From Psammoneis japonica (lineage: Eukaryota), in assembly GCA_008632985.1 (NCBI GenBank), contig QPGO01000213.1, forward strand, positions 62,001 to 117,306: a DNA stretch of 55,306 nt, written 5' to 3'. The translations under genes and the position numbers were made by a program. The notes beneath the pieces were generated by a model. The model made no database searches and was not told where the DNA came from. It saw nothing but the letters and a program-made list of their open reading frames with translations. Shown here one piece after another: positions 19,600 to 52,716 of this stretch. Position 1 is the first letter of the stretch. Each line of letters begins with the position of its first letter.

Positions 19600-20125
19600 C
19601 TGGAGTTTGCAGCAGCAGTTGCAACTTGCTTTCTTCAAGTGCCGCGCTGCTGGCAACCACCTTGTTCATTGCAAAAAAGTGCAGAACATGTTGTGAGAGA
19701 GCAGTGCAATGTGGGTGAACTAACACTGCCAACAGGAACGGCAACATGGACTTGCCCGTGCTGATTCTGGAGCAGGCGAGTTTGCAGCAGGAGCTGCTGC
19801 TCCATCATTTGAAGTGCCACTGCTCCACTCCACCTCATTCATTGCCAAAAAGAGCAAAACACATTGGGAGAGCATGACACAGATGAGCTGGCACAACCCA
19901 TGGGAATGGCAACATGAGCACGCCAGTGTGTCAGACGCCACTGATTCTGGAGCAGGTGAGTTTGCAGCAGAAGTGCTGTTGCTCCTCTGATTGTCCACCC
20001 TCACTCATTGCCAAAAAGTGTGGAGCACACATTGTGAGAGCATGTTGTGGATGAACTGACATGAACTGCAACACACACTTGCTGGTGCATGGGTGCATCT
20101 GGTGCCACTGATTCCAGAGCAACAT
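19600..20125 (+). repeat. About 3 diverged tandem units of ~175-180 bp
   Basis: Anchors gagtttgcagcag (~19603, 19778, 19958), cattgc.aaaaag (~19667, 19840, 20006) and tgatt(c)(t/c)(g/a)gagca (~19762, 19943, 20109). Confidence 0.75.
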
Positions 20126-20327
20126 GGGCGCTGGTGTGCCGCGCAAGACGTTGAGCACCCAGCTCCACCCCTGCAACTCAAAGAAAACACAAAAAGAAAG
20201 CATGTGAGCAAGCAAACAACATCTCAAGTGCCACAGAACACACTTGCTGGAACAGCTGTGGGAACAAGCACCGCCTGCATGTGCACCACATTGCACAAGG
20301 CGCTGCTCGAACAACAAAGTCATCGGC

Positions 20328-20770
20328 AATGACCAAGTTTGCCCCGCACCTCCTGTGCTGTGGACGGTTCATTGATGACATGTTTAGAGTGGTGTGGACC
20401 AGAAACAGCAGAGAGACTTGGGAAGCCTTTAAAAATGAGCCCAACAAATCAGTCAACCTCCAGTGGATTGCCCCCTCCCCACTCTCTGCCTCTGCAGTCT
20501 TTCTGGATCTGGATGTAGAAATTGGAGAAGAGGGATGCAACACAAGTGAACATGTCAAAAACCAATGAAGCTCTTTTTGTTGTGCACACCTTTTTTAAAG
20601 AGTGTCATGTGTGGTGAAGAACTTTTCATGCATGTGATTCTGAGAGTGGCAGGAACGAGCACCGCCTGCAGTCTTTCTGGATCTGGACATGGTTTTTGGA
20701 GAAAAGACGGATGCAAATGCATCAGAAACCAATGAACCTCCTTTTGCACATTCCTTGTTTGAAGAGCATC
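20328..20770 (+). mobile_element. Penelope-like element reverse transcriptase/thumb fragment, partly duplicated
   Basis: KFAPHLLCCGRFIDDMF...WEAFK...NLQW...SAVFLDLDVEI and MHQKPMNLLLHIP resemble the PLE consensus YYxRFIDDxF...FLDL...TYxKPMNLYLYIP. Confidence 0.8.
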
Positions 20771-23570: not shown

Positions 23571-23790
23571 GGGGACATGAGGAAGGCTTCCAGAATCGAG
23601 AACTGCCATCCGCATCCGAACGATGCATGCCAATGAGTCAAGTGGTCAGCACTGCTGCACAAAGAGTCAATGACTGCCACAGAGCTCTGGGGAGATGAGG
23701 AAGGCTTCAAGAATTGAGAAATGCCATCTGCATCTGAACGATGCATGCCAAGGAGTCCAGTGGTCAGCACTGCTGCACAAAGAGTCAATT
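23571..23790 (+). repeat. Two-copy direct repeat, ~100 bp match with ~119-bp period
   Basis: atgaggaaggcttc.agaat.gagaa.tgccatc.gcatc.gaacgatgcatgccaa.gagtc.agtggtcagcactgctgcacaaagagtcaat occurs twice; three of the differences are CG vs TG. Confidence 0.85.
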
Positions 23791-24692
23791 GCCATGCTCA
23801 TTGAATCACACAGAGACAGTCACCTGGAGGTCCAGGCTGTTGGCCAAAAGATTGAATCGAAGAAGCAGAAGGTCGTGCGGATGGCCACAAAGAAAATGCC
23901 ACCTGACTTCAACAGCAACAGCTGGGAAGACTTGGTTGCCTCGGTTTCCTTTGAAGAACAGGCAGCATTCCTTTGACCACTAAAGCCTTCAGTCTGTTGG
24001 GGTTAGCCAGAGACTTGTGGATGCAATCATGAATGGATCAACGGCGATGGACGTTTTCTTTCCCTTTTGTTCCATCGCTGTAGCCGTGCCACCTCCACTC
24101 TGTGGGATTCTCAAGCGTAATGAAACCGGATTGCAACTTTTTTCTCCATTCCTTCTTCAGCTTGAGACTTTTTCGATTGGTTTCTTTCGGGCCTGCTCGG
24201 GTGAGCTTGAGCCAGAAACCACCGCTATCCGACGAGGATAGAGAAGGCAATGTACTATCATTATCGTCCTTTTTCGTAGCGCCAATAGTATCTATGCACT
24301 ATTGTTTACCTCGGGTCAGTAGTGTTGCGTATCTATACCGCACCGCTTCCCACGCACTCTGCAATATGTGATACTAAATACAATACGCCCAAAGTTCGAC
24401 AAATGTCTAATGGTAGACAATAAAAATACCACAGTAGTACGTCAAACGTCTAATGATAAATAATCAAGCCGTATAGATGCCGAACGAATCGCCATATATC
24501 GGTATGCAAAGGCTCAATAAACTACAATGTCGTTCCCACCATGCTTCAGGATATTGATACTTGAGTGAATTTCACGACTTTTCCAAGACCCCGCAATACC
24601 GTACATGCTGAGAGTCAATCTCCGCTGTCTACTTGAGTACTGCCTTTTCTATAGGTAGGAAGACAACCATCAAGTCCCTCCACTTCCTTCGC

Positions 24693-34197: not shown

Positions 34198-34743
34198 ATG
34201 AACGCGGTTCGGGCAGTTTCATGGACCTTCTCCCGAGAGGCTGCCTCAATGCAACCTACAAAGGCGCACTGTCATGTCCGCTCGTTACCATCATTGTTTA
34301 GGCAGGAACGCCATTCTCAAAGGCAACGTCCTGGTGGTATTCTGAATCGCTCGTTTTTCTCCACCGACGCACACGAAAAGTTGCTAACCATTCTGGAAGA
34401 ATACCGGAAAGCAAAGTGAGTCCGTGTTGAGCAATTTGCTTCGTTACTACACCAGCAGTGATTAAAATTCCTAACGTTTTCTTTGTGCTATAGCTATTCT
34501 CAAACGATTCCCTCGCGCTTTGTGAAGAAGGTTCTTGCCGCCACAGATGAAGATGGTGATGGACGAATCTCGGTAAAGGAGGTGCAGCGATTGTTGAAGA
34601 ATATTGGTGCAGCCGACAGGATGTCTCAAGAGGAGTTGCAAACAATTATGATGTATCTCGGCTGCTACAATGTTGAGAAACAGGAAAACATGTCTGTTCC
34701 GTTGGAGGAAGTCAGAGATTTGTTTCTCGGAAAAAAGAAGTGA
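34198..34743 (+). CDS. Small EF-hand protein with a probable mitochondrial presequence; exons 34198-34415 and 34494-34743
   Basis: Arg/Ser-rich N-terminus ending RSFFST; in-frame GT-AG intron 34416-34493; EF-hand loop DEDGDGRISVKE. Confidence 0.85.
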
Positions 34744-35309
34744 AGAAGGACACACTGACAGCGACGTATGAAAGTCCATTATTCTGGCCGAGAATTGAGT
34801 TAAACTTAAATCCTTTATACTTTGTAACGATGGTTTTGCTCTCTATCTATGACTGGTTAATGTGTAGCTTGGGAAACATAAGTAACCCGAGAGCTATGGC
34901 AGGTTGTCACCTCCTGCATCAATGTACTACACCTTTGCTTGGAATGTTTTGGAACGCACACCGTGAAAACCGAAAAAAGAATTCCTTGCCAAGTGCCACC
35001 GAAAAAATCAACTACCCTGCCGATCAACATCATGACGTTATTGTTTGTGCTTTTCCTTCTTCCTGTCACGCGCGCCACTCTACCAGCGCTGAATCTCACA
35101 AATTGCTGGCAACATGTGGCAATGAGTTCCGACTCAGACTTCCAAGTGGAAACGGGGGAGAGGGGGCACAACAACCCGCAAAGAACAACATGCAGCATCT
35201 ATGCAGGTTTCTGCGCTGGTGCACAATGGATGATTTTCAAGAAGCAGAAACTCTGCTGTGCCTGTGTGCATCTCATTTCTTTTGTCGCACCGCAGCTCTC
35301 TCAGAGTTC

Positions 35310-37770
35310 CCTGGCCAGATGGGCCTTGCAGCGCTCAACCACAATTCTGACAGTGTTCCCAGGGTTCCACCAGAGATTGCTGACATCCTTGGTCTGCATT
35401 TGGTGTTTTTGTGGGTTGCATCAGGGCTTTCCTTTCACTCTGGAGCTGCGAGAGTCCCCCAGCTCTGACATGGATGAAGTGACTGGGGGGCACAACTGCG
35501 GTGCAAGATCGGCCTCACAGCACTCTGCCACAGTTCTCAAAGTGTTCCCTGGGTGCTGTCAGAGACCCTCAATGCTGTCAGCCTGCAGTTCTTGTGTTGG
35601 TTGGTCACACATCTGGGTGTCCTTGCACTCTGGAGTTGGGAAATCACAGCTCTCACTCTGGCATGGATGAAGAGTGACTGTGTGGGGGGTGCAACTGCAA
35701 ACAGATGAGCCTTAAAACACTCCACCACTGTTCTCAAGTGTTCCCCAGATTGCACCAGAGAGTTGCAGTTTCTTTGGCCTGCAGTTGTTGTTTGGTCAGT
35801 CAGAGTCAAAGCTGTGTTCTGCCTCAAGCTTCCGTGTGCAGTCTCCAATGGGGGGGTCAAAATGGCCCATTTGTCACAGCATGCAGAATCTGCATGGGTT
35901 CCAGCATTGAACTTGCTGCAAAAGACAGAGTCAGCACACATGACCTGCTCTGTGCAAGTGCCACCAAAAAACTCAAAAACCAACATCATGGTGGGCAATC
36001 GGAGCGGATTTTGGTCATTTCATGAAAAAACCAAGTGAATTTTTTACTCTCATCTCTGCCAGATTTCTGCAGTCAATCTCTGAACAGCCCGTGTGTCATT
36101 CCAGATGGGCGGAAGAGAGAAGAGTGAAGACTCTGACTTCAAAAACTGAGCAAGGCATCAACAACCATCTTTGGTCTTTTGTCACCATGGCTCCATCTCT
36201 GAGGGCATTAAAATCTCAATGGGAAGCCAGAGAACACTTTGAGAGCAGTGGTTGAGAGTTGCAAGGCTTGCCTGCTGGTGCAGCTGTGCCAAGCAAAGCC
36301 TCCAACCTCACACAACTGCTGCTGGCCAACTCAACAATTGCAGGCTGAGGGCATTGAAGCTCTCCAGAGAAACCCTGGGAACTTTTTGAGAATGGCAGCA
36401 GAGTGTTGCAAGGCTAATCTGGTGCAGTTGCAACCCCCCAACTGCTCAATCCATGCCAAAATGAGAGGAGAAGAATTCCCAGCACTGCTCCAGAGCAAAA
36501 AGACACCCTGCAGTGCAATCAACTGACCCAACAACTGCAGGCTGAGGGCATTGAGTCAAGGTCTCAAGAAGAACCCAGGGAACACTTGAGAATGGTGATG
36601 GAGTGTTGCAAGGCTCATCTGGCACAGTTGCAGCCACCAGGGACTCAAACCATGCCAGAGTGAGAGCTGAAACTCCTGACTCCAGAGTGAAAAGACACAC
36701 ACTGATGCAGCCAACCCACCCAAAAATTGCAGGCTGAGCACATTGGATTTCTCCAGCAAAGCCCAAAGAACACTTTGAGAGAATGGCGGTGGAGCATTGC
36801 AAGGCTCATCTGGAGCAGTTGCAGTCACCAGTCACTTGATCCATGCCAGAGTGAGAGCTGACAAAACTCCTGACTCCAGAGCAAAAGGACACACTCGTGC
36901 AGCCAACCAACCCAAGAACTGAGAGCTGAGGGCATCAGGGCTTGACTGCAGGCTGAGAGGATTGAAGGTCTCCCATGGAACCCAGGGAACACTTTGAGAA
37001 TGGTGGTGTGGCATTGCAAAAGGCTCATCTGGCACAGTTGCAGCCACCAGACACTTGGCCCATGCCAGAGTGAGAGCTGAAACTCCTGACTTCAGAGTGA
37101 AAAGACACCCTGATGCAACCAACCATTACAATGACTTCAGCCTGAGAGCATTGAAGGTCTTCAGTGGATTCCAAGGAACACTTTGAAAATGGCGAGTGAT
37201 TCATGGCACTGAAACTCCCAACTCCAGAGTGAAAGGACACCCTGGCACAACCAAACAGCCCAACAGCTGCAGGCTGAAGGCACTGAAGATCATGCACGGA
37301 ACACTTTGCGAATGGTCGTGGAGTTTTGAAGAGCTCATCTGGTGCAGCTGCAGCCCCCAGTCCCTCAATCCATGCAAAAATGAGAGGAGAAAAAAATTCC
37401 CATTTGCTCCAGAGTGAAAGGACACCCCCTGGTGCAACAAACCAACCCACAACTGCAGGCTGAAGGCATCAATGGTCTCCTGTGGAACCCAGGAGGAGGC
37501 CACACTTTGAGAATGGTGATGGTGGGTTTGTTGAAGGGCTCATCTGGTGCTGCTGCAGTCCCTGGTCACTCAATCCATGACAAAATGAGAAGAGAAAATT
37601 TCCCAACTGCTCCAGAGTGAAAGGACACCCCGATGCAACCAACCAACCCAACAGCCACAGGCTGAGGTCATTGAGTCAAAGGTCTCAAGAGGAACCCAGG
37701 GGACCATTTGAGAATGGTGGTGGAGTGTTGAGAGGCTCACCTGGTGTGGCTGCAGCCACAATGCTCCAGG
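35310..37770. repeat. Diverged ~190-200 bp satellite: about 3 units in minus orientation (35310-35800) and about 9 units in plus orientation (36230-37770)
   Basis: Anchor ggaacactttgagaatgg at ~36386, 36586, 36776, 36994, 37183, 37306, 37507 and 37708; its reverse complement (ttct..agtgttccc) at ~35345, 35535 and 35730. Confidence 0.85.
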
Positions 37771-38259
37771 CACACAGCAACATGATGACAGATTGGTGCT
37801 GACCTCATCCAGCCCACATCAACTCCAAGATCTTCATTGGTCAATGCCCCCAGTGCTCATGCTCTTTCATGCTTGCCACCTTCTTGCCAATTTGAACAAG
37901 GGCTTCCCTGTGAGCCACAATGCAAATGTGTGCTCCATTGCATTTGAAGCCATGACGGCAATGATGAATTGTCCCTTGTGGGTCATCGTGACTCACCTGA
38001 AGACTGGCAGGAGTGGCTGCACTGTCAAGAAACCAGGTCACCTCATTGAGTCAATGAAGGCTGAAATCCACATCCCAACCAACAAGTTGCCAACTGCCCA
38101 AAAAAAATCCCAAGTGCTCAGCAAAGTCAGAAACATTGAACAAACAGTTTTTGATGGCACCACAATGGGACAGCATTGCAAATGCTCTCAGATCAAAAGG
38201 CTTGCATGCTGTGATCAACATTTTCAGCCAAAGTGCCAATCAAGAACATGACACACTCT

Positions 38260-38930
38260 CAAAGAAATGCACCCTCTCTGGCTCTTGCAGCTGTTGCCAA
38301 TTCTGCTGACAACCCAAAACTTGGGAGGAAGCCATGAGTGGACCTGATCTCGCCGCCTGTCTCAAGGCTTGTGATGTCAAAATTGACTCCCTTGTTGATG
38401 ACAAAGATGCTTGGGAAGAAGTTGACTGCCAAGATTGGACAAACATCCTGTCATCCACTTGGGCCTTCAGATGCAAACAATGCCCTGATGGGTCAATTCA
38501 AAAACACAAAGCCTGATTCTGTGTCCGTGGTGACAAGAAATTGGAATGTGTTGGCCACTTTGATGCCTTTGCTCCACTGCAGATTGGACAATGGCACAGC
38601 TGATGCTTGTGCTGTCTCAAATTTTTGAGCTCTCAACCAAACAAGTTGATTGTGTTGCTGCTTTTGTCCATGCTCCAATTGACAACGATCCAAAAGCATG
38701 GGACAACATGATGCGTGAAGAGTGAGAGCACTCTGGACAATCGCGGGGCTTTGACTCCAGCTGACATCATGCCAAGCTCCAAGCACTGTGCCATCAAGTG
38801 TCAGGCTTTGCTTGCAGCTGAAACCAAATCAAGTCACTGTGTCCAAGATTGCAACAGATTTTAACAAAGGGACTCATCACAGCCAAATTGAGTCTGTTCA
38901 CAAGTTGCTCTGCGGTTGGTGGCTTCTTTG
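38260..38930 (+). mobile_element. Ty1/copia (CoDi-like) pol remnant: RT N-terminus joined by deletion to the RNase H C-terminus
   Basis: WEEAMSGPD...AWEEVD...NILSSTWAFRCKQCPDGSIQKHKA*FCVRGD; QVDCVAAFVHAPID; ILTKGL...KLLCGW. Confidence 0.92.
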
Positions 38931-41339
38931 TTGAAATCATGCATGACTCGCACACGCTCATGCTTGCGCGTGCAATTTTCTGCTTCCAGCCTTGCACCTG
39001 CAGCACTGTGTGGTGCTCTCTAGAGAGTGCAAAACAAGACATTGGCACGCAGCTCCGTTGATTGCATTGCTGTCATTGGCCCTGCTGCTGGCAATGCATT
39101 TGCCATTCACCCTCCAGCTGATCTCTTCCAACTCTCAGACAACAGTCATTGCACCCACAAAATGACAACAAAGCATCATCATCTTTGCTGTCATCCATGG
39201 TAAATCATGCATCATGCATCCAGAACCATGAGCACAGCATGTCACATCAAGCACTGGGAGACCATGACATGCATTGCCAGCCCCTGTTGGACCTCTCCCC
39301 AACAAACAAGAACAACGCAGTCTGCCAGCAAGGAAGAAGAATGCATGTGCAACAACAAAACAAAGGCACAAGACCCTGCACAGCATGCCAACAACAATTT
39401 AGATTCGCTTGATCAAGCAGCTGCAATGCACTGGGCTGAACGTGCTCAAGTGCTGCAACACAAACTGCACCAGCAACAAGCAACAAGACACAAAGCAGCT
39501 TGTTCCCAAGTTTGTTTTGGAAAGAAAAGCATTCAAGCTGAAGTGCAAGGAGCAGTTGGACATTTGTTGTGGGGAACTGGCACCAGAATTGCAAGAAGAA
39601 AACAAGGAATTGCAACATCAAGTGAGTGCACTGGAAGAGGTGAGTTGCTCCTTGTGTCAGCAAGCATCTGAGTTGAGCCGATTGGCACAAGTTTCAGACT
39701 CAGGAAATTGCAAGCTTTGGCAAGAAAAGAAAGAGCTGCAAATGGAAGCCAACAGACAAGACAAGCAAACTCTTGAACATGAGTGGACAGAACAGCGCAG
39801 TGACTTGAGCAAGCTGAGCATGCACAAGCAATTGGGTGATGATGCGGAACCCAATGTGATTGGTTGGGAAACATCAGGGTGAAGCACAAGTGCTGTGAAG
39901 GAAGCAGAGGGGCCTTGTCTTTTTAAATTGCTGGGCATTTTTGAAGAGGCCATGGGTGATGAGGTTGAAAAGTCTTGGTTGGAATCTGACAGTCACATGA
40001 TGTGCCATGAAACGGACGAAACATCCACTCCACTGTGCAAGGAATGTGTCGCCGTTTTGGAGGCTCTCACACAAATGTGATGAGTGCTGACAATGAAGAA
40101 GAAAGCAACAAACATGCAGATGTTGCATTGCTGGTGGGTTTGACAAAAGGAATTCAGCAAGAAGCATCACACCAGAGGAGGAAGTGTCAGTCATCAGATG
40201 GCATCCGCGACTGAACGAATCATCCACTCAAGATTTCAAATTCTGTCCTTCAATGGAAGAAGAATTTCGGCATTGCCTGACAATGTTGTGTGTGCAAGCA
40301 TCCAACAAAATGCAAACCTGCAATGAGTTGCTGCACAAAGAATGAAGTGGGTTGCTGTGCAAAACATTGGATTTGTTGGAAGCCAGCACCAGGCAGTCAA
40401 TGGCATGGAGACACGCGATTGTCGCGCGGTCACAAACTGACTCGACAAACTTGTTTCTTCTCATGCACTCAAGTGCCGCCAACAAAAAGACACTCTCAAC
40501 AAACAATGCAATTGCAGTGGACACACGTTGGCTGCCCATGTCACACAACATCATGGGCAGTGAATGCCGCGTGCAGCGGCATTGGATGGCAAGAGTTTGA
40601 GCTCAGTCCTTGCATTTGGTGTGCATTGTGCATGAATCAAGTGCCGGCAAGACCTGCCATGATGCAGTGGCATCCTCCACCTGCACTGAATCATTGTTGA
40701 GACCACCTGTGTTGCTGCTCATGGCATCCAACAGTGACTCGGCCCATCCCACCCCAGCTTTCACAACTTCGATCCAGACTGTCATTGTGAACAAACCGAG
40801 TTTCACTCCCCCCCACACACATGCCACTGACTGCAACATTTAGTCCAGTCAAGCAAGCACCCTTGAAGCCCTGCAACCATCATCCCTGCATCCATCTGCA
40901 CACACATGGAGTGCGACAGGGGTGCTTTGGACACAACCAAAGATCAACTGGTTTGGCATTTCCATGGCACTGTCCAAGATGTGTTGACTGCTGCTGGTCC
41001 CCATTTTTTTTAAGTGTTTTACTTGTGCGCCGAGCACAGCGGATGATCGTTTCGATTTGACTGTCAGTGCCCATTGCATCTGACTCTCTCCAGTTTCTCA
41101 TGTTTTTAATGAAGCATTTTATTGTGGCGTCCTGCATGCTCAACGCAAGAGCGCTGCTTGCCTGTCGGAGGGAGTTTCGGGAGACATACGGACAGTGTCG
41201 GAGGGAGTTTCCATTCGGGCGAACGGCAAAAAAAAACACGCCACACCATGGCGTAAATCTTCAAGGAAGAAACTGCTTGATTTACCGTAAGTGCCAAGAA
41301 AATGTGTTTTTAGATCACTCGCTCCTATCACGGGTTGCA

Positions 41340-43200: not shown

Positions 43201-44169
43201 ACGTGATCTCCCCATCGGGTGAAATGCGCATGGAATAAATATTTAAACTAAACTAAAACAAGATGTGTTGACTGCTAGTCCCCATCAGATTTGCGTCTGA
43301 TGACTCATGCTCCCTCACCACGGCACGGTCGTCAACAAGAAGGAGTGCTGCTGCCTGTGGTACCCTTGGGGGGCCCCGTGCAGGTTGTTAATAGCCCGTC
43401 AGCTCTTACAACAGCCATGTTCAATGTTTTTTTACGATTAACATGAAAAACTCGGGGCTTTCTTAAACTTGGTGCTTTCCTAACCAAGGGGCCTGTTGTT
43501 TGCTTGGCGCCCCGCCAAGGTTCTGGGCTTGTCTTTTTCATCGAGGTGCTTTCCTAACCTCGCCGTTTTAGTTGTAAACATCGAGTTTCGTCTCGAGTGG
43601 GGTTTCCTGAGGGTGCAGAGAATGGTACACTCTCTGTGCATCACCCAACAGGCGGTCGTCCTACCGTACCGAGACACTCGTCAGTGCCAGCAATTGTAAG
43701 AATGTTTAAACCTGCATGAGAAGGAAGAAGGTATAACTCAGCCAGTTTGGCATCGTTGGAAAGGGGTTAGCACTTCTTCATGTCTTGCAGAGCGCCGCAA
43801 CCATACTGCAGTGCAGAGAGGGCGGTCGATGCAGAAGAAGTGAGACGAAAACACGTCGTGCAGCGAAGATCACGAGACGACGAACAAACAATGTGGCCAA
43901 ATCTTTATTGAGCTGGCCTGCCTTTTTCAATTCAAACACTCACATCACGCCTTCTTGGCTTCGAATGAGCTGCAACATATTATATACATTGATTAGAACA
44001 ACAATTCATTCGTGGCGCCAATTTGAACGGAAAAGAGGCCTCCCACCGCACCTGTGCAACGCTTTTCGCGCCTTCCGCGGCGATTTCAAAAGAGTGTGGC
44101 TGGCGGGCAAAGTGCGCCTAAAAATAAATAAGGAGTTTTTTAGCGGGGACGTTAAAGTTTTGCCGTTGA

Positions 44170-46770
44170 AGCAATTCAAAACCGATGGCGTGCCTTTCCG
44201 ACGGCGGATTGAAATCAACATTGTCTTTGAAATTTTCAAATCAACCCAGACGAACTTTTTTTGCTCAACTCGCAGCTTCCATGAGAACATTTTTTCTGAA
44301 TCACATGGGCATTCTGCAGGAGTCGATGAGGTTGTGCGGCGAACAACACTCCATTCATGTGGGGTTCGACGAGTGGAGGACACTGTTCTGCAGGAATCAC
44401 TGAGATTCTGAGAGTGTTTTTGGAGCAGGAAAATGTTTGGGCAAACCTTTTCAGACAAAGACAACACTCTCAAAGTTCAAGTTAGAGCAGGTGAAGAACC
44501 TTGAGGAATCCTGCAGGCTGCACAGTGCATTTGACCCACCAACACATTTGACCCTGGGGCAAAGATTTGTGAAAAGCGCAGTGGAGACATTGAGCTTTTG
44601 CAGCTGAAGCAGTTCAAAACCGATGGCATGCCTCGCTTGTCTCCGACAATTCAAACAAATTGTTTTTGAAATTTTCAAATGAACCCACAATGCATTTTTT
44701 GCTCAACTCACAGTTTTGGCCCAGCATGAGAACATCTCCAAATCACATGAACCCATGCATTCTGCAGAAGTCAGCAGGTGTGCCTCTTTGCGAGAATTGT
44801 CCCTTCCTGTGCATTGGCAGGAAGTGCAGCCACAATCCATGCACAGGCCCAGTGCTTGCCGAACAGCACCAACAGATGAGGGAAAATTGGCGGGAGTTTT
44901 GCCGGCTTTCTTGGACAGGGCCTCAAAGCCCATTCAATCAAAGATGGGGTTGCCCTCGTCAATGACGTGAAGGCTGTCACTGCCGCAATTCTTGCTCGGA
45001 AGACAGACATCAAATTCAATGTCACAACCCCTCCAATGAAAAAAGACAACAGCATGGTGCATGCCCAAGTGTGACATCGCGCAACAACAATGCACAACAC
45101 CTCCCATCAGCGTGCAAACAGATGCGTCTGGCCCATGTCAAGATTGGGTGGCATCATCACAAGTCCGTGGACTTGGGGCAGAAAGACCCCCATTTGCTTG
45201 CAATCACAGAAAGTTGTGCCTCTGACCAGGAGGAGGACACCAAGCTGTGCAGAACAACTCCAAACCAATCTGGCCACACTCCTCTTTCTGTTTGTTGGAC
45301 ATCTCTCACTCCAGCTGTCACCTCCATGATTTGAGAAACGGCACCTGCCTCTGTCACCATTTGCCATCATGTTGAAGACAGTCACATCAAACGCACCATG
45401 TGGGTTTTCACCCATGTCAACTGGAAAGCATGCGTTGTCAGCTGTGTGCTGTCCAAAAACTTTCCTCAGTGTGGTGAAGCATGTTTTCATGCGCCTGGTG
45501 AGGGAAGAAGAAAGCATCTTCTCAGCCTTTTTGTTTGTGCAGTGCTTTGCAAACTGGCGCCGTTGGCTGTTGTCATCATCAGGATTTGGGCCCAAGGCAA
45601 AGAGTTTGAGCAACTTGATGAAAGCTTGGTTGAAGAACTTGCAGCAGTGAAGAAGGTCAACTGAAAGCGGGGGGGGGGGGGCACATGACAGCTGTGGGAC
45701 AGTCGCTTTCTTAATTTAGAATGTCGCTCAACAGGGAGTTGCAATCAACATGGACAGGAGGGGCATCAAAGTCCTTGTCAGCAGGAGAGAGGTTGTGTGC
45801 CAGCCCCAGTGGATTCTTGGGATCAAACAAGGAATCTGTGACCAGGCCAACATCGGCGGGCAACAGGAGGAGGAGAAGCTGCATCATCTGCTGGCGTTGG
45901 CAGTGGCTGCATTGGTGGCAGTCACATTGGCAGCAGCGGCATGCAATCAACCAACCTCCGTGTCGGCAATGCAGGGGTGGGCACCATTGCAACATGGTCT
46001 TCGCTCTCAGCAGCAATTTTGTTGACTCACAACGAAAATTTGCCTGCAAAGCCAGGCCATGGCAATGACAAAGTTGGCTTGCTCTGAAGCCCAAAAGTTT
46101 GCTCCTTGTTTTGGCTTGCCAAATTGGCTGGAGTTGCATGCCCAATGGTCTTCGCTCTCAGCAGCAATTTTGTTGACTCACAACGAAAATTTGCCTGCAA
46201 AGCCAGGCCATGGCAATGACAAAGTTGGCTTGCTCTGAAGCCCAAAAGTTTGCTCCTTGTTTTGGCTTGCCAAATTAGCTGGAGTTGCATGCCCAGTGCT
46301 GCTGCGCGCAGCTTTGACACCCGCGCTCCTTCTTTTTTAATTCTGGCGAAGTTTGAGTTGGTTGGCAACAGAAAGCTCATCTCTGGTCTGCTTTTTTTGG
46401 CTTGTCTCTAGAGTCTGGGCTGCTGCTCTGTGTGTGTGTGCATGCTACAAAACAGTTGACCATTGTGGCAAGGCAATTTGTTGGCCACAACAGAGGGCTT
46501 TGCTTGTGCGCGGCAATGTTTGGTTGGTTGGCGCGAAAATTGAAAATGTTGTGGCAGCATGCACCCCCCAAAAAGTGCAGCCAAATGTGGGTCTTCATTG
46601 GTGGCAGATGCACGAAGAATCAAGCTGGGGGACAAGGTTGACAGACTGCATGTGCAGCCAGTCCTTCCAGTCTGCTGCACTGTGCATCACAGATCTGCAG
46701 TCACAGTGACGTCTGTTCTTGCTCAGTTGTGCCGACAGTCTGTCAATGGTTGAGAAGTTTTTTTTAGGAT
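44170..46770. mobile_element. Degenerate repeat/TE block E; related sequence continues to the left with normal composition
   Basis: TA essentially absent from 44170 onward; internal diverged repeat 44148-44323 vs 44586-44772. Confidence 0.65.
45994..46295 (+). repeat. 151-bp tandem duplication with a single mismatch
   Basis: 45994-46144 vs 46145-46295; the only difference is aaattGgctg (46126) vs aaattAgctg (46277). Confidence 0.95.
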
Positions 46771-47093
46771 GACCTCGCAGACCCCATAACCCATATATCG
46801 ATCGAAAGCTCGTGACGAGCTGAATGAGGTCCAACGCATGTTGTATCGGTCGGGGTGACTGGAAAGCGAATGTTTTTCGTTGAAAACTTGTTAGTTACTT
46901 AAGAAAAAATAACTGTTATGTTCGATTATCCCTAATTAACATTTATGTTTATATACCATTATTAAATGTATAAAAAATATGACATTTAATCCGGAGTTCG
47001 GAAAGGTCATACAGATTTGGATACTATATAAATTACTTAGGGACAGTTTTTTTCTAGACTTTGCTATTGTTCTGGAGCCTCCACAATGGCCGA

Positions 47094-47166
47094 TATTGAA
47101 AATCGGCTTTCGTCACCCACTGCAACTTGGTGTTATGTAGTGGGTGACGAAAGCCGATTTTCGATA
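47094..47166. repeat. 31-bp inverted repeat with an 11-nt loop
   Basis: tattgaaaatcggctttcgtcacccactgca ... tgtagtgggtgacgaaagccgattttcgata; 24-bp perfect core. Confidence 0.92.
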
Positions 47167-47879
47167 AGTGTTTTCAGTATCGAGATTTTTGAAGAGCAAA
47201 AAAAACTTCGCTACCATTGACAGACCGTCGGTACACCAGTAGTTTGCTAGCCACACAAACACAGTAGTGCCGAGAGGTTCACTTTTCGTCGTATTTTGAG
47301 AATGTCAAAAGAAGTCACAACGACTGTCACGCATAAATGTTTCAGACATTTGGGTTGGCTGTCATTCGCTTGTGTAAAAAATTCTCATTTTGACAATTAC
47401 AGCAGTCATTGAGATCATTCCAATGACTTTCGTTCCAATGATGAGTACGATGGAAATTGTATCAGACTGCGCAAACTAATGACGCTTCGTGTCCTATGTG
47501 ACTTTGATGAAACAAAAGAGAGATCAATGACCCTTGTTTCTACTCAATTTTTCGTAGGATTCTCTAAACCTTCACTTATGACTCGCTCATCAGTGACCTC
47601 CATCCAAGAGAAGAACATTCGAGTTCACAGACGCATTTTGGTCGTCGCCCCCTCCGATTCTGTCGTCCATAAAAAGTACAAGAGTGAGCAAAAGCCGTCG
47701 ACAAAAATCAAAACGCGTCCCCCTTCTTCTTCCTCCGAAAGTTTTGATCAATTTCATCTGTTGCCAAATCGGACAAAGACGCATTTCTACTCATGCCAAA
47801 GCTCGTCGTTTCTTCCAGCTATTTCTGGTTGTGTCGGTGATACTTTCATCGAGATTCCCGATTGTGAAAGCGGACGGAT

Positions 47880-48737
47880 ATGGAAAAGTTCTTGGTAAGT
47901 TCACTTTTCTATTCATGTTTGTTCCTTGAAAGAAGTGGGGATAAAAGTTGCTCACGGTAATCTCTCGGTCCGAATTTGAACTCTCGAAAAGGAACTGCGA
48001 CAAATCTGCGCGGTACCGTTAATGGCACGAAAACCTCCAAAGAAGAAGTCCAGCAAGGCCATGTCACGAGGAAACTGCCGGAGGGAGGTGGCTCATCACA
48101 TTATGAAGAAGATATTCAACACAAGAATACCGATACGGCTACACACTTTGAGACGCGAGATGCTACCGGACCCCTTGATCCAGGCAGCGAAGGCACACAC
48201 TACGACGACGAAGAATACGAGGATCTCGATTTAAGCATGTACAACTTCACAGATGAGGAGTTGGAGTATATGGAATATAACGACACTTCGCAAGGAGGAG
48301 CTCTCGAGGAATTGGGAGGAGGATCAACCTTAGCTTTGTCAGAGCGATGCATGGAATGCAATCGAGCCGGTTGTCACAGTACGACGAACTACTCTTTTGC
48401 TCTTCCTCCCTTGGGCGACACCTGCAAGAGGTTGAAGTGCGATACCGCTCCTTGCTCACCGCCCCAATGTTGGCGTTGTCGCAGTCGAGGTTGCTACAGA
48501 GGTGGTATCGCCAACGTGCTGAGCGGAAACAAGGCGAAGGCCGAATTTTGTCAAACAAGGGGGTGCTTCTCGATGACATGTATAACCAATCAATGCACAA
48601 AGTGTAAGAAGATTGGGTGTTTCACTGTGAAACGCAAATCTGAAAAATTGCGAAAAAAGTGCTGGTTTTGGGGTTGCCCGAAATTAACCTGTGCTCGAGG
48701 CAAAGTAGCCCTTGCATCTAAGGTGCAGCTTCCGTGA
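47880..48737 (+). CDS. Probably secreted protein with an acidic Tyr-rich spacer and three 6-Cys repeats; 5' end disrupted or unresolved
   Basis: The 253-aa ORF has three C-x2-C-x3-GC-x13/18-C-x4-C-x4-C units. The in-frame ATG at 47880 (MEKFLVSSLF...) is separated from it by a TAA at 47958. Confidence 0.65.
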
Positions 48738-49221
48738 TGTACTGTGGCATTCGTTCAACCTTATCGGAGCTCCCCCATGTAGTATCCCGTCAATCTGAGT
48801 TTAACAGTAGTACTTGTATGTAGAAAACGCAATCATACTTTCGTTCAGTAGGCGTACAGCAGCTGATCAAGCTGGTCACGACAAATATGTTGATACTTGG
48901 CGTGTTGCTCCCGAATGCAGATTGTTATCGTTTCGTGCTCCGCAGGAAGGAAAGGAAAGAAGAAGTGATATCCGGTATCTTTTTTGAAACATTGATGACG
49001 TGGCATACACGACTGAAGAGCTTATACCGCCGCCACCACGACACACGAACACGACTCACACGACAAATCGGCGCACGCATGCGCACGCTACGCATCCATT
49101 CATTTCCGCATTTCTGCTTCTCTCATCTCCTTCGATTTGGTCTTACTGTATTCATTCTTTTTGTTGTTGTGCGTGTGAGTTTTGTCGCTAGTGTGATTGT
49201 ACCTACTTCTATCAAATAACG

Positions 49222-50355
49222 ATGAAAGCTAGCAAGCTCTCTGTGGCCACGCGGTGCAGCAAGTGGCTCCTACTACTAGGGATTATCGAAATCATTGATT
49301 GCCATTCCATTGTTTTCTATTGCCATTCTTTCTCCTACGCGGTAGCTCCACTTGGGAGGAGACGGCCGTTCTTCTCACGGCCAAAACCTGTTAAATCGTC
49401 TGGGTTGATGATGGCTGCGGGCACGGGAATGGGAGGAGCAAGTACCAGAAATCGTAAATCAAAGAAAAAAGGGAAAAAGAAGAAAGCATCAGCTTCTGCC
49501 CCCTTTGATGCGAATGCGTCACTCCTTCGCCTTGAGAAGCGCTATGATGAATTATGTTTGGCAGATGCAAAGGATGTACAGTTAGATGCACAGGACGACT
49601 TTCAACGACAGGGGATTGAGCCTCGTGTGCTGTCAGAGTACGTAATTGGGGTCAGAGCTGCTCCCAAGTCCAATGCTGACGTGAGATCTGTTTCGGATTG
49701 GATACCGGTCGCGCAGTTATGCATTTCCCAGTCCATGACACACAAGGAGACTACAGACCAGAAAGATGGAACTACAGCAGGTGTTTCTTTTTATTGTCGC
49801 GAGCTTTCGCATGCTGCAACTCTTGGAGTACCCGTATTCAAAACGTTGGCTCGTGAACAAATAGAATACAGTGCAGAACCAGTAAACTCGTTCTACAAGT
49901 ACGTCTATGATCCCATTGTCGGAGGAACTAATGATGACGACAGAAACGATCAAGTCATGACGAAAACTGAAGCACGATCCATGTTAGAACTAGAGGAAAA
50001 TGTCAGCGATCTCTCACTTGTCAAGCAATCGTACAAAAAGCTGTCATTTGAACTTCACCCGGATAGACTCTTGGGTCAGAATCTCGGTGATCAAGAACTT
50101 AAGGATGCGTCAAAACGATATGCGCAAGTCAAGCTTGCTTATGAAACGTTAATATCTGGTGGCGTTCGAAGAAATGGAGATTCGTCTTGGTATCAGTCGT
50201 TGGGAGGGAGAGCCCGGACCGAATTTTTTGGTCCGATTCCTCTCATGACAAGAGAATTGGCGCAAAGTTGGATTAAACAAAACAACGTTGATTTTGCGGT
50301 TGTAGGGCTTGATCCAGAGATCACAACACCGTTTTTGCTGGCGAAATCAAGCTAG
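49222..50355 (+). CDS. DnaJ (J-domain) protein with an N-terminal signal/plastid-type leader
   Basis: 377-aa intact ORF; EARSMLEL...VKQSYKKLSFELHPDRL...YAQVKLAYETL with the HPD motif. Confidence 0.9.
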   Translation: MKASKLSVATRCSKWLLLLGIIEIIDCHSIVFYCHSFSYAVAPLGRRRPFFSRPKPVKSSGLMMAAGTGMGGASTRNRKSKKKGKKKKASASAPFDANASLLRLEKRYDELCLADAKDVQLDAQDDFQRQGIEPRVLSEYVIGVRAAPKSNADVRSVSDWIPVAQLCISQSMTHKETTDQKDGTTAGVSFYCRELSHAATLGVPVFKTLAREQIEYSAEPVNSFYKYVYDPIVGGTNDDDRNDQVMTKTEARSMLELEENVSDLSLVKQSYKKLSFELHPDRLLGQNLGDQELKDASKRYAQVKLAYETLISGGVRRNGDSSWYQSLGGRARTEFFGPIPLMTRELAQSWIKQNNVDFAVVGLDPEITTPFLLAKSS

Positions 50356-50446
50356 TTTATAATGAGTGCCAGTTGAGCAGAATGCCGTTTGAGTTATTGA
50401 CGTGTCTGAAGGGTTATTGTGGAGTAGTTTGAATGAGAATAATAAT

Positions 50447-50614
50447 NNNNNNNNNNNNNNNNNNNNNNNNNNNNNNNNNNNNNNNNNNNNNNNNNNNNNN
50501 NNNNNNNNNNNNNNNNNNNNNNNNNNNNNNNNNNNNNNNNNNNNNNNNNNNNNNNNNNNNNNNNNNNNNNNNNNNNNNNNNNNNNNNNNNNNNNNNNNNN
50601 NNNNNNNNNNNNNN
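50447..50614. other. Assembly gap (N run)
   Basis: Run of n bases. Confidence 1.
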
Positions 50615-50653
50615 ATCTTTCTCCTCTCAAGCGAGCAAGTAGAGGTATGGTAG

Positions 50654-50819
50654 GGCCTAGAGGGCCCTAGCGACTAGCAGGCTCTACTCTCTAGCTAGAG
50701 AGGGCCCTAAAGTAAAGTAGAGAGCGAGTAGAAAGCGAGGCCTAGGGCCCTAGCGACTAGCAGGCTCTACTCTCGTAGAGAGAGGGCCCTAAAAAGTAGA
50801 GGGCGAGTAGAAAGCGAGC
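50654..50819 (+). repeat. About 83-bp CTAG/TAG-rich tandem repeat (2 copies visible) next to the gap
   Basis: ggcctag(ag)ggccctagcgactagcaggctctactctc...gagagggccctaaa...gtagag.gcgagtagaaagcgag occurs twice. Confidence 0.85.
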
Positions 50820-51004
50820 GAAGATAAGCAGGATCAAACAATAATGAAAACCCGGAGGTGTTGCCGAACTGGAAGAGTCACAGTCACAGTCATGGGGCTT
50901 ATGTGTGACAGTTGAAATTTCAGGCCGTGCGATGTTCGTTCAAGGTGGTTTCACCACACACCCGCACACAAAATCCGGCGAGAAGGCTCCGAATGCTGTA
51001 CACC

Positions 51005-51328
51005 ATGGTTTCTCGTGCTTTGTTCATCTTCATTTCCCTCTTGCTTCTCGTGGCTTGCGAGAGCGCTCATCCAACTCCTGAAGAGCATTGTTCTGTATGC
51101 CTAAAGAAATGTTTACGAGGCGGCGACCAGTATGCATGCGACGTGTGCAACCGCATCAAAGATTGCCCAACGCCTTGCAACCACTGTAGCGGCATGGGCT
51201 GCTTCGGACCGAGAGGTGATTCCATCGAGGCCTGTCATGAGTTCAAGTGCCACAGTATTCTTTGCCCGCACCCGATCGCAACCATTGACTCAAATCTCCG
51301 TCCAGTGAAACCGAAACCCGAAAAGTGA
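51005..51328 (+). CDS. Small secreted cysteine-rich protein (107 aa, 12 Cys in the mature part)
   Basis: Signal peptide MVSRALFIFISLLLLVACESA, then CSVCLKKC...CDVCNRIKDC and CNHCSGMGC-x10-CHEFKCHSILC. Confidence 0.75.
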   Translation: MVSRALFIFISLLLLVACESAHPTPEEHCSVCLKKCLRGGDQYACDVCNRIKDCPTPCNHCSGMGCFGPRGDSIEACHEFKCHSILCPHPIATIDSNLRPVKPKPEK

Positions 51329-51639
51329 GAATCGTGTCGAGTGTCGAAAGGCTCGCTGTCGAAGAGTGGTACAAGAAAATGAGAAGGATTGCATATGACT
51401 CGGTTACTTCGATGATGTTCGAGATGTATGGGAAAATGGTGAAGGATGCAGATAGTGTGATAGTCCCTACCGTATACATAAAACATTGTTACACATGAGA
51501 GCGAATTGAGCAGCCGTTTTAGAAATGAAGACACCTAAGAATAGGCCGTTGCTTGTTCAACTTGAGACTTAGAATGGAATCATCTTCATTGCTTGTTCAC
51601 AGAGGTGAAAGTGTCACTTTTGGTGCGTGCTGTGCTCAG

Positions 51640-52370
51640 AACGGAATCGAGAGCCAAGGCGTTACGGTCATCAGTCTTTACCACAAGGTAAACCTGGATG
51701 AGATATGAGACAGAGTGGCCTATCGGTTGTGGGACAGGAATTTCCTATGTTATTAACATGGGGCAACTTTACGTTTCGTGCCTGGTGTCTATTCTCAGAA
51801 TAACAGGCAATAGAATCGTCAAGCCCTCGCTACCTCTTCCCCCGCATCGCTCTCGGAACCAGTGCATCGAAGCATCGACCGCTGCAATCAATGGATCGTC
51901 CTTTTGGGCCCGCTCTCTTGACTACACTCTTGAGGAACAGTGTGCCCAGGCCTTCAGCACATTTTGGGTTTTGGTGCCTTTGCCATTACTGCAAGTACTC
52001 GTCTCACTTACAACGGTTCCATCCACCCCTGTATATATTCATGCGCAACATGTCTCTGTGGCTTTCCGCCAATGTTGTCGTTGCGCTCCAGCTCTTCACG
52101 ACCTACACACCCGGTTTGAACGATACCATCTTTGGTGTGTCCGGTATGAACGGAACCAGTGATGTATCACCATTTCGATGATGGTTTCCGTCTTTTTGAA
52201 CAGGGTTTCCGAAGAAGGCGCTTCGCCGTCGCCTCAAGGCCCAGGGTTCAGATGCGGACGATCGCGAGGACTGGCTCTTTGTTGCGCATGTTGATCCTGC
52301 CCCGCACGGCACCAAGCTTCCAAGGGAGCTTCCAAGCTCAACTTGGATGGCTGAGTTGGACAGATAGAGT
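51640..52370 (+). pseudogene. C-terminal fragment of a P-type (P2) cation ATPase
   Basis: FWARSLDYTLEEQCAQAFST; NMSLWLSANVVVALQLFTTYTPGLNDTIFGVSGM; KALRRRLKAQGSDADDRE. These resemble Cation_ATPase_C helices and are spread over three frames. Confidence 0.65.
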
Positions 52371-52716
52371 CCATTCAACGCTTCTGCCAGCTGGGGATGA
52401 AGCATCGGATGTGTTCCCAAGTGCATGCGCATGTGTGTTATAGAGGGCTTGTCGTCCAGGAATTGGGAGAAAAGAGTTGGTCGGCAGCAACGTGTTCGTT
52501 GTTTTTGAGATTGCTCTTCCTTTTTAGTCTTTCGAATCTTGTTTGGAACGTTTTGACGGAGAGTGACAGCAAACAGAACAATAGAAGGGAGAGAGTTCCA
52601 CTCTGCTCTACGGCATGCCAAGGAATGGAATGTAAGTGCTAGTAGAGATACACAAGAAGCGAGAGAGAAGCAAATAAAAACTGAAGTACCACAACTTATA
52701 ACAAAACATTAACGTT

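Follow-up and report, generated by a model that had tools for sequence, protein, structure and literature searches.

A diatom nuclear genome contains a dead Ty1/copia pol fragment, CoDi-like, frameshifted and internally deleted. The 5.6-kb island of repeats around it and four other islands in the analysed stretch were probably rewritten in place by two context-specific transition processes. This stretch, the window, comprises 55,306 nt of Psammoneis japonica (GCA_008632985.1, contig QPGO01000213.1, positions 62,001-117,306 of the forward strand). The first process would be a targeted hypermutation of TpA to TpG or CpA, that is A:T to G:C on either strand, which would have run near completion and would spare chiefly TTAA-like contexts. 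The second, slower one would convert CpG to TpG or CpA, most simply by deamination of methylated CpG. In coding sequence, the two would turn Tyr into Cys or His, CTA-encoded Leu into Pro, GTA-encoded Val into Ala, and CGN-encoded Arg into Gln, Cys or a stop.

The five islands are sharp-edged and amount to 22.8 kb (22,832 bases). Island 1 (776-8813; 8036 bases) is a purged block with 17 TA (rho 0.03) and 86 CG (rho 0.18), in which some CG is kept from about 7500 onward. TA has likewise been lost from island 2 (12595-14080; 1484 bases; 3 TA, rho 0.03), where CG is half depleted (41, rho 0.45), and from island 5 (44153-46765; 2611 bases; 7 TA, rho 0.04), which retains about 40% of the expected CG (61, rho 0.39). 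Island 3 (18919-23981; 5061 bases; 23 TA, rho 0.07; 66 CG, rho 0.23) is purged and has tandem repeats inside, and island 4 (35200-40841; 5640 bases; 10 TA, rho 0.03; 64 CG, rho 0.19) encloses the copia relic. The edges of island 4 are sharp to within about 250 bases, and its TG and CA stand at rho 1.96 and 1.67.

Together, the islands contain 60 TA versus 868 expected (rho 0.04) and 318 CG versus 1325 expected, where the expectation is the odds ratio outside and takes the gene-rich flanks as a proxy for a DNA-level ancestor. TG is in excess by 859 and CA by 866, a joint gain of 1725 set against a TA plus CG loss of 1815, and G+C is 0.489 inside versus 0.474 outside. Across all five blocks, which measure 1.5-8 kb, rho is 0.03-0.07 for TA (0.58 outside), 0.18-0.45 for CG (0.97 outside) and 1.6-2.0 for TG and CA, the loss of TA being complete even in islands where that of CG is half done. 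The purge thus runs from TA and CG to TG and CA and ends abruptly at regional limits. A TA-free run of 1735 bases (37127-38862) holds the copia fragment, whereas 75 of the 76 related metagenome loci have no such run longer than 267 bases; the absence of TA around the fragment is far beyond chance.

Both strands are affected. TG and CA occur equally often and are well interspersed (z between -3.1 and +2.6 in a runs test, as in the flanks), and this test found no strand-coherent tracts of TG versus CA in the islands. TA survival varies with the flanks: ATAN/NTAT occurs once in the islands versus 611 times outside, GTAC 0 versus 128 times and TTAA 22 versus 62 times, and the survival order is ATA < GTA < CTA << TTA. 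This context dependence suggests an enzyme-like activity. CG survival depends on the flanks as well (0.61 for GCGC, 0.10 for ACGT). Four of the six asymmetric contexts lean one way in their tetranucleotide excesses; as CG-derived products confound these excesses and the per-context bookkeeping of tetranucleotides lost versus gained does not balance, we make no claim on the edited base or its flank. The two copies of a direct repeat that spans one edge of island 2 (12436-12564 versus 13333-13459) show 3 differences in the predicted direction, 0 reversed and 22 others, too few to use.

The identity of the relic rests on phmmer, tblastn and a profile of 43 relatives. These place a Ty1/copia-type pol remnant, consisting of the linker and the N-terminal part of the reverse transcriptase (RT), at 38106-38722 (+), and tblastn places the extreme C-terminal end of pol at 38736-38919 (+), joined almost directly to the start of the RT. 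Overall, the dead fragment extends over 38106-38919 with about 265 codons left; its frame is 0 (mod 3) up to about 38590 and 2 from 38585. Searched by phmmer against 1.84 billion representatives, region 38313-38600 gave 1659 matches at E<=1e-3 and 127 at E<=1e-10, the best with 55% identity, and the nearest relatives listed carry PF07727. The profile's scores in two successive frames were 3e-43 and 2.6e-12. In tblastn with 20 long relatives (polyproteins of 816-2469 aa), 38106-38782 was the sole matching region in the whole window. At the far end, relative P0019, which has 890 residues, aligns through its final 36 (855-890) with 38830-38919 (E 1.9e-4), and residues 1356-1381 of P0047 match 38736-38798 weakly (E 0.32). 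Similarity breaks off around 38722-38782 and returns over the final ~60 residues of pol; by this alignment, most of the RT and RNase H, including the catalytic YxDD region, has evidently been deleted internally. Neither a YxDD motif nor an RNase H domain was found in the relic by tblastn of the relatives, and the 20 polyproteins revealed no gag, protease or integrase around it in the window. No long direct repeats that could represent LTRs flank it, even with YpR steps collapsed. Judged by its similarities, the fragment is Ty1/copia pol with an RVT_2-type RT and not a whole element. The lineage name CoDi was given to it by the first-pass annotation and is used in PMC2806351; we keep to CoDi-like for the fragment. 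A VTC-domain protein identifies the host as a diatom.

How far do the residues of the RT fragment bear the marks of the purge? The codons from which the first-pass annotation had argued are present, AAA CAA TGC ... GGT GAC at 38475-38534 (+), reading KQCPDGSIQKHKA*FCVRGD with an in-frame TGA at 38514-38516, and CAA GTT GAT TGT at 38642-38653 (+), reading QVDC where relatives have QVDY. As these two strings are in frames 0 and 2 (mod 3), the frameshift near 38585 falls between them. The copia pattern used there, KRYPDGxIRKYKARFCVRGD, is mostly borne out by 101 aligned relatives: Arg occupies 38478 in 84 (Gln, CAA, in the window) and 38514 in 88 (TGA in the window), 38499 is Arg in 49 and Lys in 35 (Gln in the window), and 38481 is Tyr in 40, Phe in 37 and Leu in 7 (Cys in the window). 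Its weak point is the Tyr of 'KY' at 38505, where the window has His and relatives have Leu (48), Phe (34) or Tyr (13); the TAC>CAC change proposed there would start from a residue that 13 of the 101 possess and finds no support. An ancestral QVDY, on the other hand, agrees with the relatives, Tyr being the commonest residue at this site in the 43 (0.50) and TAY the codon in 70 of the 76 related metagenome loci, which were fetched with a pattern allowing Tyr, Cys, His or Arg there; the window has TGT. Measured against the 30 closest metagenome relatives, the claimed loss of CGN-encoded Arg is seen as well, with five of six conserved Arg sites reading Gln, Gln, Gln, Cys and stop, and the sole Tyr site conserved at >=70% reads Cys. 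Since there is no TA from 37127 to 38862, no Tyr codon is possible anywhere in the fragment. Comparison with the relatives assigns TA>CA to 38160, 38556, 38594 and 38696, and TA>TG to 38565, 38609 and 38651, the ancestral state of these changes being inferred from the relatives and not observed.

Among the 34 replaced conserved residues (consensus >=0.5 in the 43 relatives), 15 can be explained purely by CG/TA -> TG/CA transitions and 2 by the mirror process GC/AT -> GT/AC (simulated null 8.4%; binomial p 3e-8). This imbalance and the rho values of 0.03 and 0.19 in island 4 uphold the proposal that the loss is directional, aimed at TA and CG, and not due to age alone. What does not survive is the accompanying picture of few other changes and of other residues left largely untouched: 19 of the 34 replacements are of another type, 11 of them one-step and 8 two-step, and the one-step group includes several transversions, among them Q>K at 38538, G>C at 38547 and V>L at 38577. 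The frameshift and the internal deletion of most of the RT and RNase H contradict it further. With these 19 replacements, the contribution of ordinary decay is also large, and the RT fragment alone is no proof of targeting.

A metagenome contig, L040, which belongs to the same QVDY.AAFVHA subfamily as the window's copia, presents the TA signature in isolation. It contains 0 TA in 3085 bp at a CG rho of 0.92, and its pol frame, open over 727 aa, has neither a stop nor a Tyr. Fifteen sites that are Tyr in at least 70% of relatives read His (7), Cys (7) or Arg (1) in L040, for which we found no flank rule, and at 10 of 52 conserved Leu sites it has Pro; conserved Arg (21/25), Trp (12/12) and Glu (13/13) are kept. 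In the other 75 of the 76 metagenome loci, TA rho is at least 0.47. CpG-only depletion is common among these related copia loci, as in L072, with a CG rho of 0.17 and a TA rho of 0.57. The losses of TA and CG, which had been treated as one process, are accordingly two that can be separated across related loci, L040 having lost TA with CG intact and others CG with normal TA. Besides L040, protein P0132 carries the signature, both coming from other assemblies.

That the changes occurred in place is recorded in a satellite within island 4 (35314-37763), of which we found 12 copies of ~190-bp units, the three leftmost inverted versus the others. The copies are 65-76% identical to each other, and of the 950 adjacent double differences that separate them, 225 are CA<->TG. 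TG and CA are each present in at least two copies at 11 sites, with CG/TA intermediates in 1 of 93 cells; in the AT<->GC comparison, intermediates fill 19 cells versus 12. The copies have diverged into TG versus CA after amplification, so the purge acted in situ and persisted once the array had formed. In a run that is probably of the same sample, summed contig depth is 1368-1552 over the satellite, a value that is not a copy number, versus ~56 on single-copy flanks, and at 75-82 versus 56 the part of island 4 at 38671-40671 has a nearly single-copy depth. Independent assembly of a public run gave contigs that match the island sequence, with 6 differences in 2846 bases and 8 in 610; as the run is probably from the same sample, they are not fully independent of the window. 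Between the window and a near-identical contig, TG<->CA double differences occur at 35378-9 and 35690-1, which may be allelic or due to conversion between satellite units. A further run, X2, which may be RNA, skips a GT..AG segment at 34415-34494; it does not cover islands 4 and 5 or 47342-49999 and is no evidence on expression.

The remaining island content is largely anonymous. A Pfam scan of 111 stop-to-stop island ORFs placed one family above the cut-off, the MopE motif at 8055-8438, and six further weak matches below it; the MopE-motif fragment lies within island 1 and is possibly host-derived. Translations of island 4 in the three + frames gave 0 Pfam families, and none of the 487 candidates for the longest island ORF (1341-2114 (-), 258 aa) was a homologue at E<=1e-3. 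Self-BLAST of the window, both raw and with YpR steps collapsed to one symbol, found tandem arrays, but neither a pair of LTRs nor sequence shared by different islands. As the identified content consists of the copia piece, the satellite and the MopE-motif fragment, the designation as repeat or foreign DNA is established for part of the islands only.

Can the footprint be explained without a process directed at TA? The fragment is clearly old, given its frameshift, its deletion and the 19 of 34 replacements outside TA and CG, and CpG-only depletion is common in its metagenome relatives (L072), all of which suits neutral pseudogene decay with ordinary methyl-CpG loss. Age alone is nevertheless hardly credible and already contradicted by the TA rho of 0.03-0.07 in five islands versus 0.58 outside, by the single ATAN/NTAT versus 611, and by L040, from which every TA is gone despite an open 727-aa frame and normal CG; moreover, a one-for-one exchange of TA for TG and CA is not expected of neutral decay. 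That most island content cannot be identified leaves some room for foreign DNA that lacked TA and CG from the outset, or from which both were selected away, but this is extremely improbable: by comparison of the proteins, Tyr, Arg, CTA-Leu and GTA-Val codons have been specifically replaced, a CGA has become a TGA stop, and the enzyme is dead, while the G+C of the islands is that of the host and the satellite copies are polymorphic for TG and CA. The chance of a sequencing or assembly artefact at modified CG and TA is negligible. Modified bases do give systematic transition miscalls on some platforms, but strand-dependent miscalls would leave a mixture with CG and TA rather than their absence, L040 and P0132 bear the same signature in other assemblies, and the independently built contigs match the island sequence, although they probably stem from the sample of the window.

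Two further alternatives accept a TA-directed chemistry and place it elsewhere. As the element is a retrotransposon, and A-to-I editing with a preference for a 5' U is known (cited in 10.64898/2026.01.13.699255), an ADAR-like activity could have edited its RNA, with reverse transcription fixing the changes, so that the copy arrived mutated. We consider this highly unlikely, as editing of sense RNA yields TA>TG (Tyr>Cys) on the coding strand only, whereas both directions are seen in L040 and in the window. The purge also takes in the satellite, the MopE-motif fragment and several kb outside the element, with edges unrelated to the element, and the TG versus CA divergence of the satellite copies followed their amplification. 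Alternatively, silenced chromatin could impose a slow regional bias without any dedicated defence, by 5hmU- or 6mA-like base modification at TpA and error-prone repair or replication, alongside 5mC deamination. The lack of strand-coherent tracts and the seemingly independent events at each site agree with this, a symmetric base modification would suit the involvement of both self-complementary YpR steps, CG survival depends on the flanks as in methyl-CpG decay, and the island edges resemble those of chromatin domains. We regard it as unlikely: in L040, TA loss is total before any stop or CG loss, an order of events that speaks for a fast process, islands with half-finished CG loss have completed that of TA, and the rate described for Bigelowiella natans is ~1000x background and active in some lines only (10.64898/2026.01.13.699255). 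For the TpA purge we favor an enzymatic defence guided by chromatin or RNA, for which a DNA adenine deaminase, as proposed for B. natans, would be a candidate; the CpG loss may be methylation-driven, as the CG methylation of other diatoms suggests.

The closest precedent is indeed B. natans. Two integrated viral regions were followed there in mutation-accumulation lines; of the new mutations, 210 of 211 in one and 20 of 20 in the other were A>G or T>C, and all of these were at TpA. Its genome holds 124 TpA-poor, CpA+TpG-rich clusters, defined by cut-offs of 0.43 for TpA and 1.52 for CpA+TpG, and its TpA-depleted coding sequences are enriched in RT and DDE domains (Mettrop et al., 10.64898/2026.01.13.699255). 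These clusters of at least 3 kb share with our islands, which are well past both cut-offs, the regional TpA>TpG/CpA transitions on both strands and the presence of RT or transposase domains in such sequence. The differences are equally clear: the host there is a chlorarachniophyte, here a diatom (stramenopile) from another supergroup branch; the targets there are giant-virus and virophage insertions, here a copia relic and a satellite; rho is 0.45 in the NCLDV region there, near-total at 0.03-0.07 here. CpG is also lost here and goes unmentioned in the main text of the preprint, as does the flank dependence by which ATA is lost and TTAA half kept. A de novo rate was measured there, while our account is of a footprint alone.

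Other systems resemble the purge in part. RIP, which turns C into T mainly at CpA, creates TpA and lowers G+C (PMC2621366), has in common with it the logic of a genome defence, transitions confined to repeats, sharp edges, a dinucleotide signature and the destruction of coding capacity; in contrast to the TpA gain and A+T-rich product of RIP, TpA is destroyed here and G+C unchanged. Diatom transposons are CG-methylated (PMC2806351; bioRxiv 10.1101/2021.06.11.447926), and methyl-CpG decay resembles our case in its CpG>TpG/CpA changes, stronger at A/T-flanked CpG, and in a CG rho well below 1; it accounts for the CG half alone, the removal of TA being beyond it. The APOBEC and ADAR enzymes of animals likewise inactivate retroelements by deaminase-type, context-specific transitions, but their substrates are single-stranded cDNA or RNA and the clusters they produce are strand-asymmetric, whereas the purge affects both strands equally, forms no tracts, includes DNA other than retroelements and continued in place. 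With the CoDi copia elements of PMC2806351, the relic shares the N-terminal RT motif family K-R-Y/F-P-D-G ... K-A-R-F-C-x-R-G-D ... Q-V-D-Y as well as the C terminus of pol; it differs in its reduction to about 265 codons, with gag, protease, integrase, YxDD and LTRs not found. We found in the literature no report of joint TA and CG loss in diatom transposons and no second paper on TpA-specific hypermutation besides the B. natans preprint. A preprint on diatom transposons (10.1101/2025.10.24.684338) does not mention hypermutation, RIP, dinucleotides, deamination or CpG, nor does PMC2806351 mention dinucleotides, RIP or hypermutation. This kind of footprint has so far been reported in one unrelated alga alone, in a single preprint.

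Do diatoms then possess a defence of their own? Possibly, though we put this forward tentatively, silenced repeat or foreign DNA in diatoms may face rapid TpA-directed editing at the DNA level, of the kind seen in the chlorarachniophyte and independent of CpG methylation. It would remove every TpA, ATA fastest and TTAA slowest, before other decay sets in, and leave genes that are open but Tyr-less and catalytically dead. RIP was long viewed as a fungal peculiarity, and the chemically opposite change, A:T to G:C at TpA, was reported in 2026 for viral insertions in one rhizarian alga. If our reading is true, the saturated footprint on a diatom retrotransposon and satellite would widen this process across major phytoplankton lineages and to transposons, as would the TA-free, CG-intact copia of L040, and a diatom TpA defence would have an ancient origin in the SAR supergroup or in an even wider group. 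Genetic tools exist for P. tricornutum and T. pseudonana; should the footprint also be found in model diatoms, the enzyme and its guidance could be tested with them. Purged elements are missed by Pfam and BLAST annotation, and Tyr-free predicted proteins would provide a cheap marker of the process in metagenomes. In the purged DNA itself, stops are almost all TGA and spurious long ORFs are numerous.

What is the true extent of the feature betrayed by the altered codons of the copia reverse transcriptase (RT)? Dinucleotide odds ratios (rho), taken per kilobase along the window, show that it is regional rather than restricted to the copia motif, and consists of five sharp-edged TA- and CG-depleted islands: island 1 (776-8813), island 2 (12595-14080), island 3 (18919-23981), island 4 (35200-40841), which holds the copia relic and a satellite, and island 5 (44153-46765). 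With the odds ratios of the 32,306 bases outside as expectation, TA occurs 60 times in the 22,832 island bases against 868 expected (rho 0.04; outside 0.58) and CG 318 times against 1325 (rho 0.23; outside 0.97), while TG and CA exceed expectation by 859 and 866, at a G+C of 0.489 inside and 0.474 outside. The loss of about 1815 TA and CG steps is thus matched by a gain of about 1725 TG and CA steps, as expected from transitions at the two self-complementary pyrimidine-purine steps. All five islands have lost TA to the same degree (rho 0.03-0.07), whereas the rho of CG varies from 0.18 to 0.45. The longest TA-free run in the islands reaches 1775 bases, compared with at most 267 bases in 75 of 76 related copia loci from metagenomes. 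Stops in the purged DNA (35101-41003, forward frames) are nearly all TGA, 55 of 58 and 56 of 58 in two frames, and stop-to-stop ORFs of at least 90 aa are frequent in the islands (111 in 22.8 kb).

The first-pass annotation had described mutated copia codons, which fall in island 4, and both of the strings it quoted are found on the forward strand: AAA CAA TGC CCT GAT GGG ... GGT GAC spans 38475-38534 and contains a TGA in frame at 38514, and CAA GTT GAT TGT spans 38642-38653. They lie in different frames, which places a frameshift near 38585 between them. A phmmer search of 1.84 billion representative proteins with the translation of 38313-38600 (X at the stop) gave 1659 matches at E<=1e-3, 127 of them at E<=1e-10, the top one being 55% identical; a profile of 43 relatives matched at 3e-43 in one frame (about 38103-38594) and at 2.6e-12 in the next (about 38579-38755). 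Similarity to 20 long relatives (816-2469 aa), sought by tblastn across the whole 55-kb window, is confined to 38106-38782, and slightly 3' of it 38830-38919 matches the C-terminal 36 residues of pol from one relative (E 1.9e-4). By these matches the fragment is a short relic made up of the linker, the first ~100 RT residues and a C-terminal tail; tblastn with relative proteins and self-comparison of the window found no gag, protease, integrase, YxDD motif, RNase H or LTRs belonging to it.

Is the change in this relic directed? At the 85 sites where the 43 relatives share a consensus of at least 0.5, the fragment keeps 51 and replaces 34. Fifteen of the replacements (14 one-step) need only CG or TA to become TG or CA, eight being of CG type alone and seven of TA type alone, whereas the mirror process, GC or AT to GT or AC, accounts for two. 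Since only 8.4% of random nonsynonymous single changes on the back-translated consensus are compatible with the process (binomial p 3e-8), the proposed enrichment is real. The accompanying prediction of few other changes, however, fails, as 19 of the 34 replacements (11 one-step, 8 two-step) require something else. Measured against the 30 closest metagenome relatives at a consensus of at least 70%, 55 of 93 conserved sites are retained, five of six conserved arginines have become Q, Q, Q, C and stop, and the only tyrosine site is now C. Among the individual substitutions that had been read from the sequence, R to Q at 38478, R to stop at 38514 and Y to C at 38651 are supported, and Y to C at 38481 more weakly (Y in 40 and F in 37 of 101 relatives), but Y to H at 38505 is not, since 82 of the 101 relatives carry L or F there. 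The view that the fragment reflects targeted mutation rather than age alone therefore holds for the targeting, but much ordinary decay is present as well.

Joint targeting of TA and CG had also been proposed. Both are indeed lost in the RT fragment, but the relatives show two separable processes. Among the 76 metagenome loci, which were retrieved with the pattern Q-[VI]-D-[Y/C/H/R]-x-A-A-F-[VI]-H-A, the variable codon is TAY in 70. It is TGC in locus L040, which has no TA in 3085 bases at normal CG (225, rho 0.92) and a G+C of 0.57, and whose pol frame is open over 727 codons without a single Tyr, compared with 41 Tyr in 1434 aa of its nearest relative, L038 (68% identical). At 15 conserved Tyr sites (Tyr in at least 70% of at least 10 relatives), L040 has His seven times, Cys seven times and Arg once; Pro occupies 10 of 52 conserved Leu sites (CTA to CCA), and Val to Ala occurs three times and Ile to Thr twice. 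Retention is 21/25 for Arg, 12/12 for Trp, 13/13 for Glu and 18/19 for Phe, and 308/397 over all sites. This pattern shows TA loss to be a distinct process, separable from CpG loss, fast relative to other decay and acting equally on both strands. By the genetic code, TGA can be reached in this way solely from TAA, so that TA loss makes no stops in an open frame and leaves the L040 gene open yet dead. Another copia RT, protein P0132 from a different assembly, is probably a third purged copy: it has no Tyr in 284 aa, where the 15 relatives nearest to it (P0274-P0287 and P0121, 51-65% identical) have 6-16, and carries the motifs GVDHF, QVDC and VCV. The converse, low CG with normal TA, is seen in L072 (CG rho 0.17, TA rho 0.57) and L075 (0.20 and 0.56). 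Together with L037, L031 and L029, all copia loci of low-G+C organisms, they span CG rho 0.17-0.30 and TA rho 0.54-0.62, which is CpG decay without TA purge.

Within the islands, TG and CA are equally frequent and well mixed (runs-test z -3.1 to +2.6, flanks similar), and the runs test found no long single-strand tracts of either. Survival of TA is strongly flank-dependent. Inside and outside the islands, respectively, ATAN/NTAT occurs 1 and 611 times, GTAC 0 and 128, CTAC/GTAG 6 and 193, GTAA/TTAC 17 and 157, CTAA/TTAG 17 and 90, and TTAA 22 and 62, which fits roughly multiplicative per-strand rates with protection by a T before TA or, equivalently, an A after it. CG survives best in GCGC (0.61) and least in ACGT (0.10) and TCGA (0.12). 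The satellite of island 4, 12 copies of ~190-bp units at 35314-37763 that are 65-76% identical, records the change in place. CA/TG is the most frequent adjacent double difference between copies (225 of 950; runner-up 57), and at 11 sites where TG and CA are each present in at least two copies the intermediates CG and TA fill 1 of 93 cells, whereas for the pairs AT/GC (19 vs 12) and AG/GA (17 vs 14) intermediates exceed the two forms. Such a split almost without intermediates indicates that the copies independently resolved an ancestral CG or TA after amplification of the array. A 4.7-kb same-sample contig that joins unique flank (2 differences listed) to the satellite start differs from the window by TG/CA doublets at 35378-35379 and 35690-35691, which could reflect independent allelic resolution or conversion between satellite units.

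Fungal RIP follows a similar logic to the TpA process but is chemically its opposite, creating TpA and lowering G+C. The closest known match is instead the TpA hypermutation of Bigelowiella natans, described very recently in a preprint (bioRxiv 10.64898/2026.01.13.699255, 2026). Two viral regions integrated in that genome mutate at ~6e-7 per site per generation in mutation-accumulation lines, with A>G or T>C making up 210/211 and 20/20 changes, all at TpA; the genome contains 124 TpA-poor, CpA+TpG-rich clusters, TpA-depleted coding sequences are enriched in RT and DDE domains, and an ADAT2-like deaminase is proposed. Our islands exceed the compositional thresholds of that work by a wide margin. 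They extend it to a new host lineage and to transposon and satellite targets, and show near saturation, a dependence on flanks and concurrent CpG decay; the main text of the preprint makes no mention of diatoms, CpG or flanking context, and our literature search found no report of such TpA/CG loss in diatoms. The CpG decay fits the CG methylation described for diatom transposons (PMC2806351; bioRxiv 10.1101/2021.06.11.447926). We thus consider DNA-level TpA hypermutation combined with methyl-CpG decay of silenced repeat islands the likely explanation, in which we infer both mechanism and guidance.

Logan contigs from a public run, probably of the same sample, match island sequence over 2846 bases with 6 differences and over 610 bases with 8. 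Summed depth of look-alike contigs, which is not copy number, is 1368-1552 for the satellite, 260 for the RT piece and ~56 for single-copy flanks. Host genes lie outside the islands at 14697-18526 and 49192-54885: an ORF with a 4Fe-4S ferredoxin domain (15547-16353), a PhoX-like gene (16623-17750, reverse strand), a DnaJ-domain gene (49192-50352) and a VTC4-like SPX-VTC-DUF202 gene (52720-54885, reverse strand). The VTC-domain ORF of the latter (52720-54006) is 62-73% identical to relatives among the matches listed; those with an organism name include Chaetoceros, Epithemia, Nitzschia, Cyclostephanos, Skeletonema and Cylindrotheca, which shows that the host is a diatom. In run X2 (labelled 'DNA?'), 78 bases with GT..AG ends are skipped at 34415-34494. 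The skip looks like a spliced intron of a gene to the left of island 4 and would make X2 a possible RNA run. A 168-N assembly gap (50447-50614) adjoins an 83-bp tandem repeat (50661-50818). The terminal part of island 1, which lacks TA but has lost CG only in part, contains a fragmentary ORF (8055-8438, forward strand) with a metal-binding motif of MopE type (PF11617, E 7e-9), which may be a purged piece of a host gene. Island 5 carries two copies of a 151-bp unit at 99% identity (45994-46295), a duplication that either postdates the purge or had no mutable sites left. The edge of this island at 46765/46766 is razor sharp. At 46728-47235, the two arms of a 38-nt inverted repeat (89% complementary) flank a 432-nt TA-rich stretch with a summed contig depth of 703 (vs ~56), and the left arm, within the island, has TG/CA where the right arm, outside, has CG/TA; the structure could be a TIR element of recent origin, or an element that the boundary of the purged domain cuts through.
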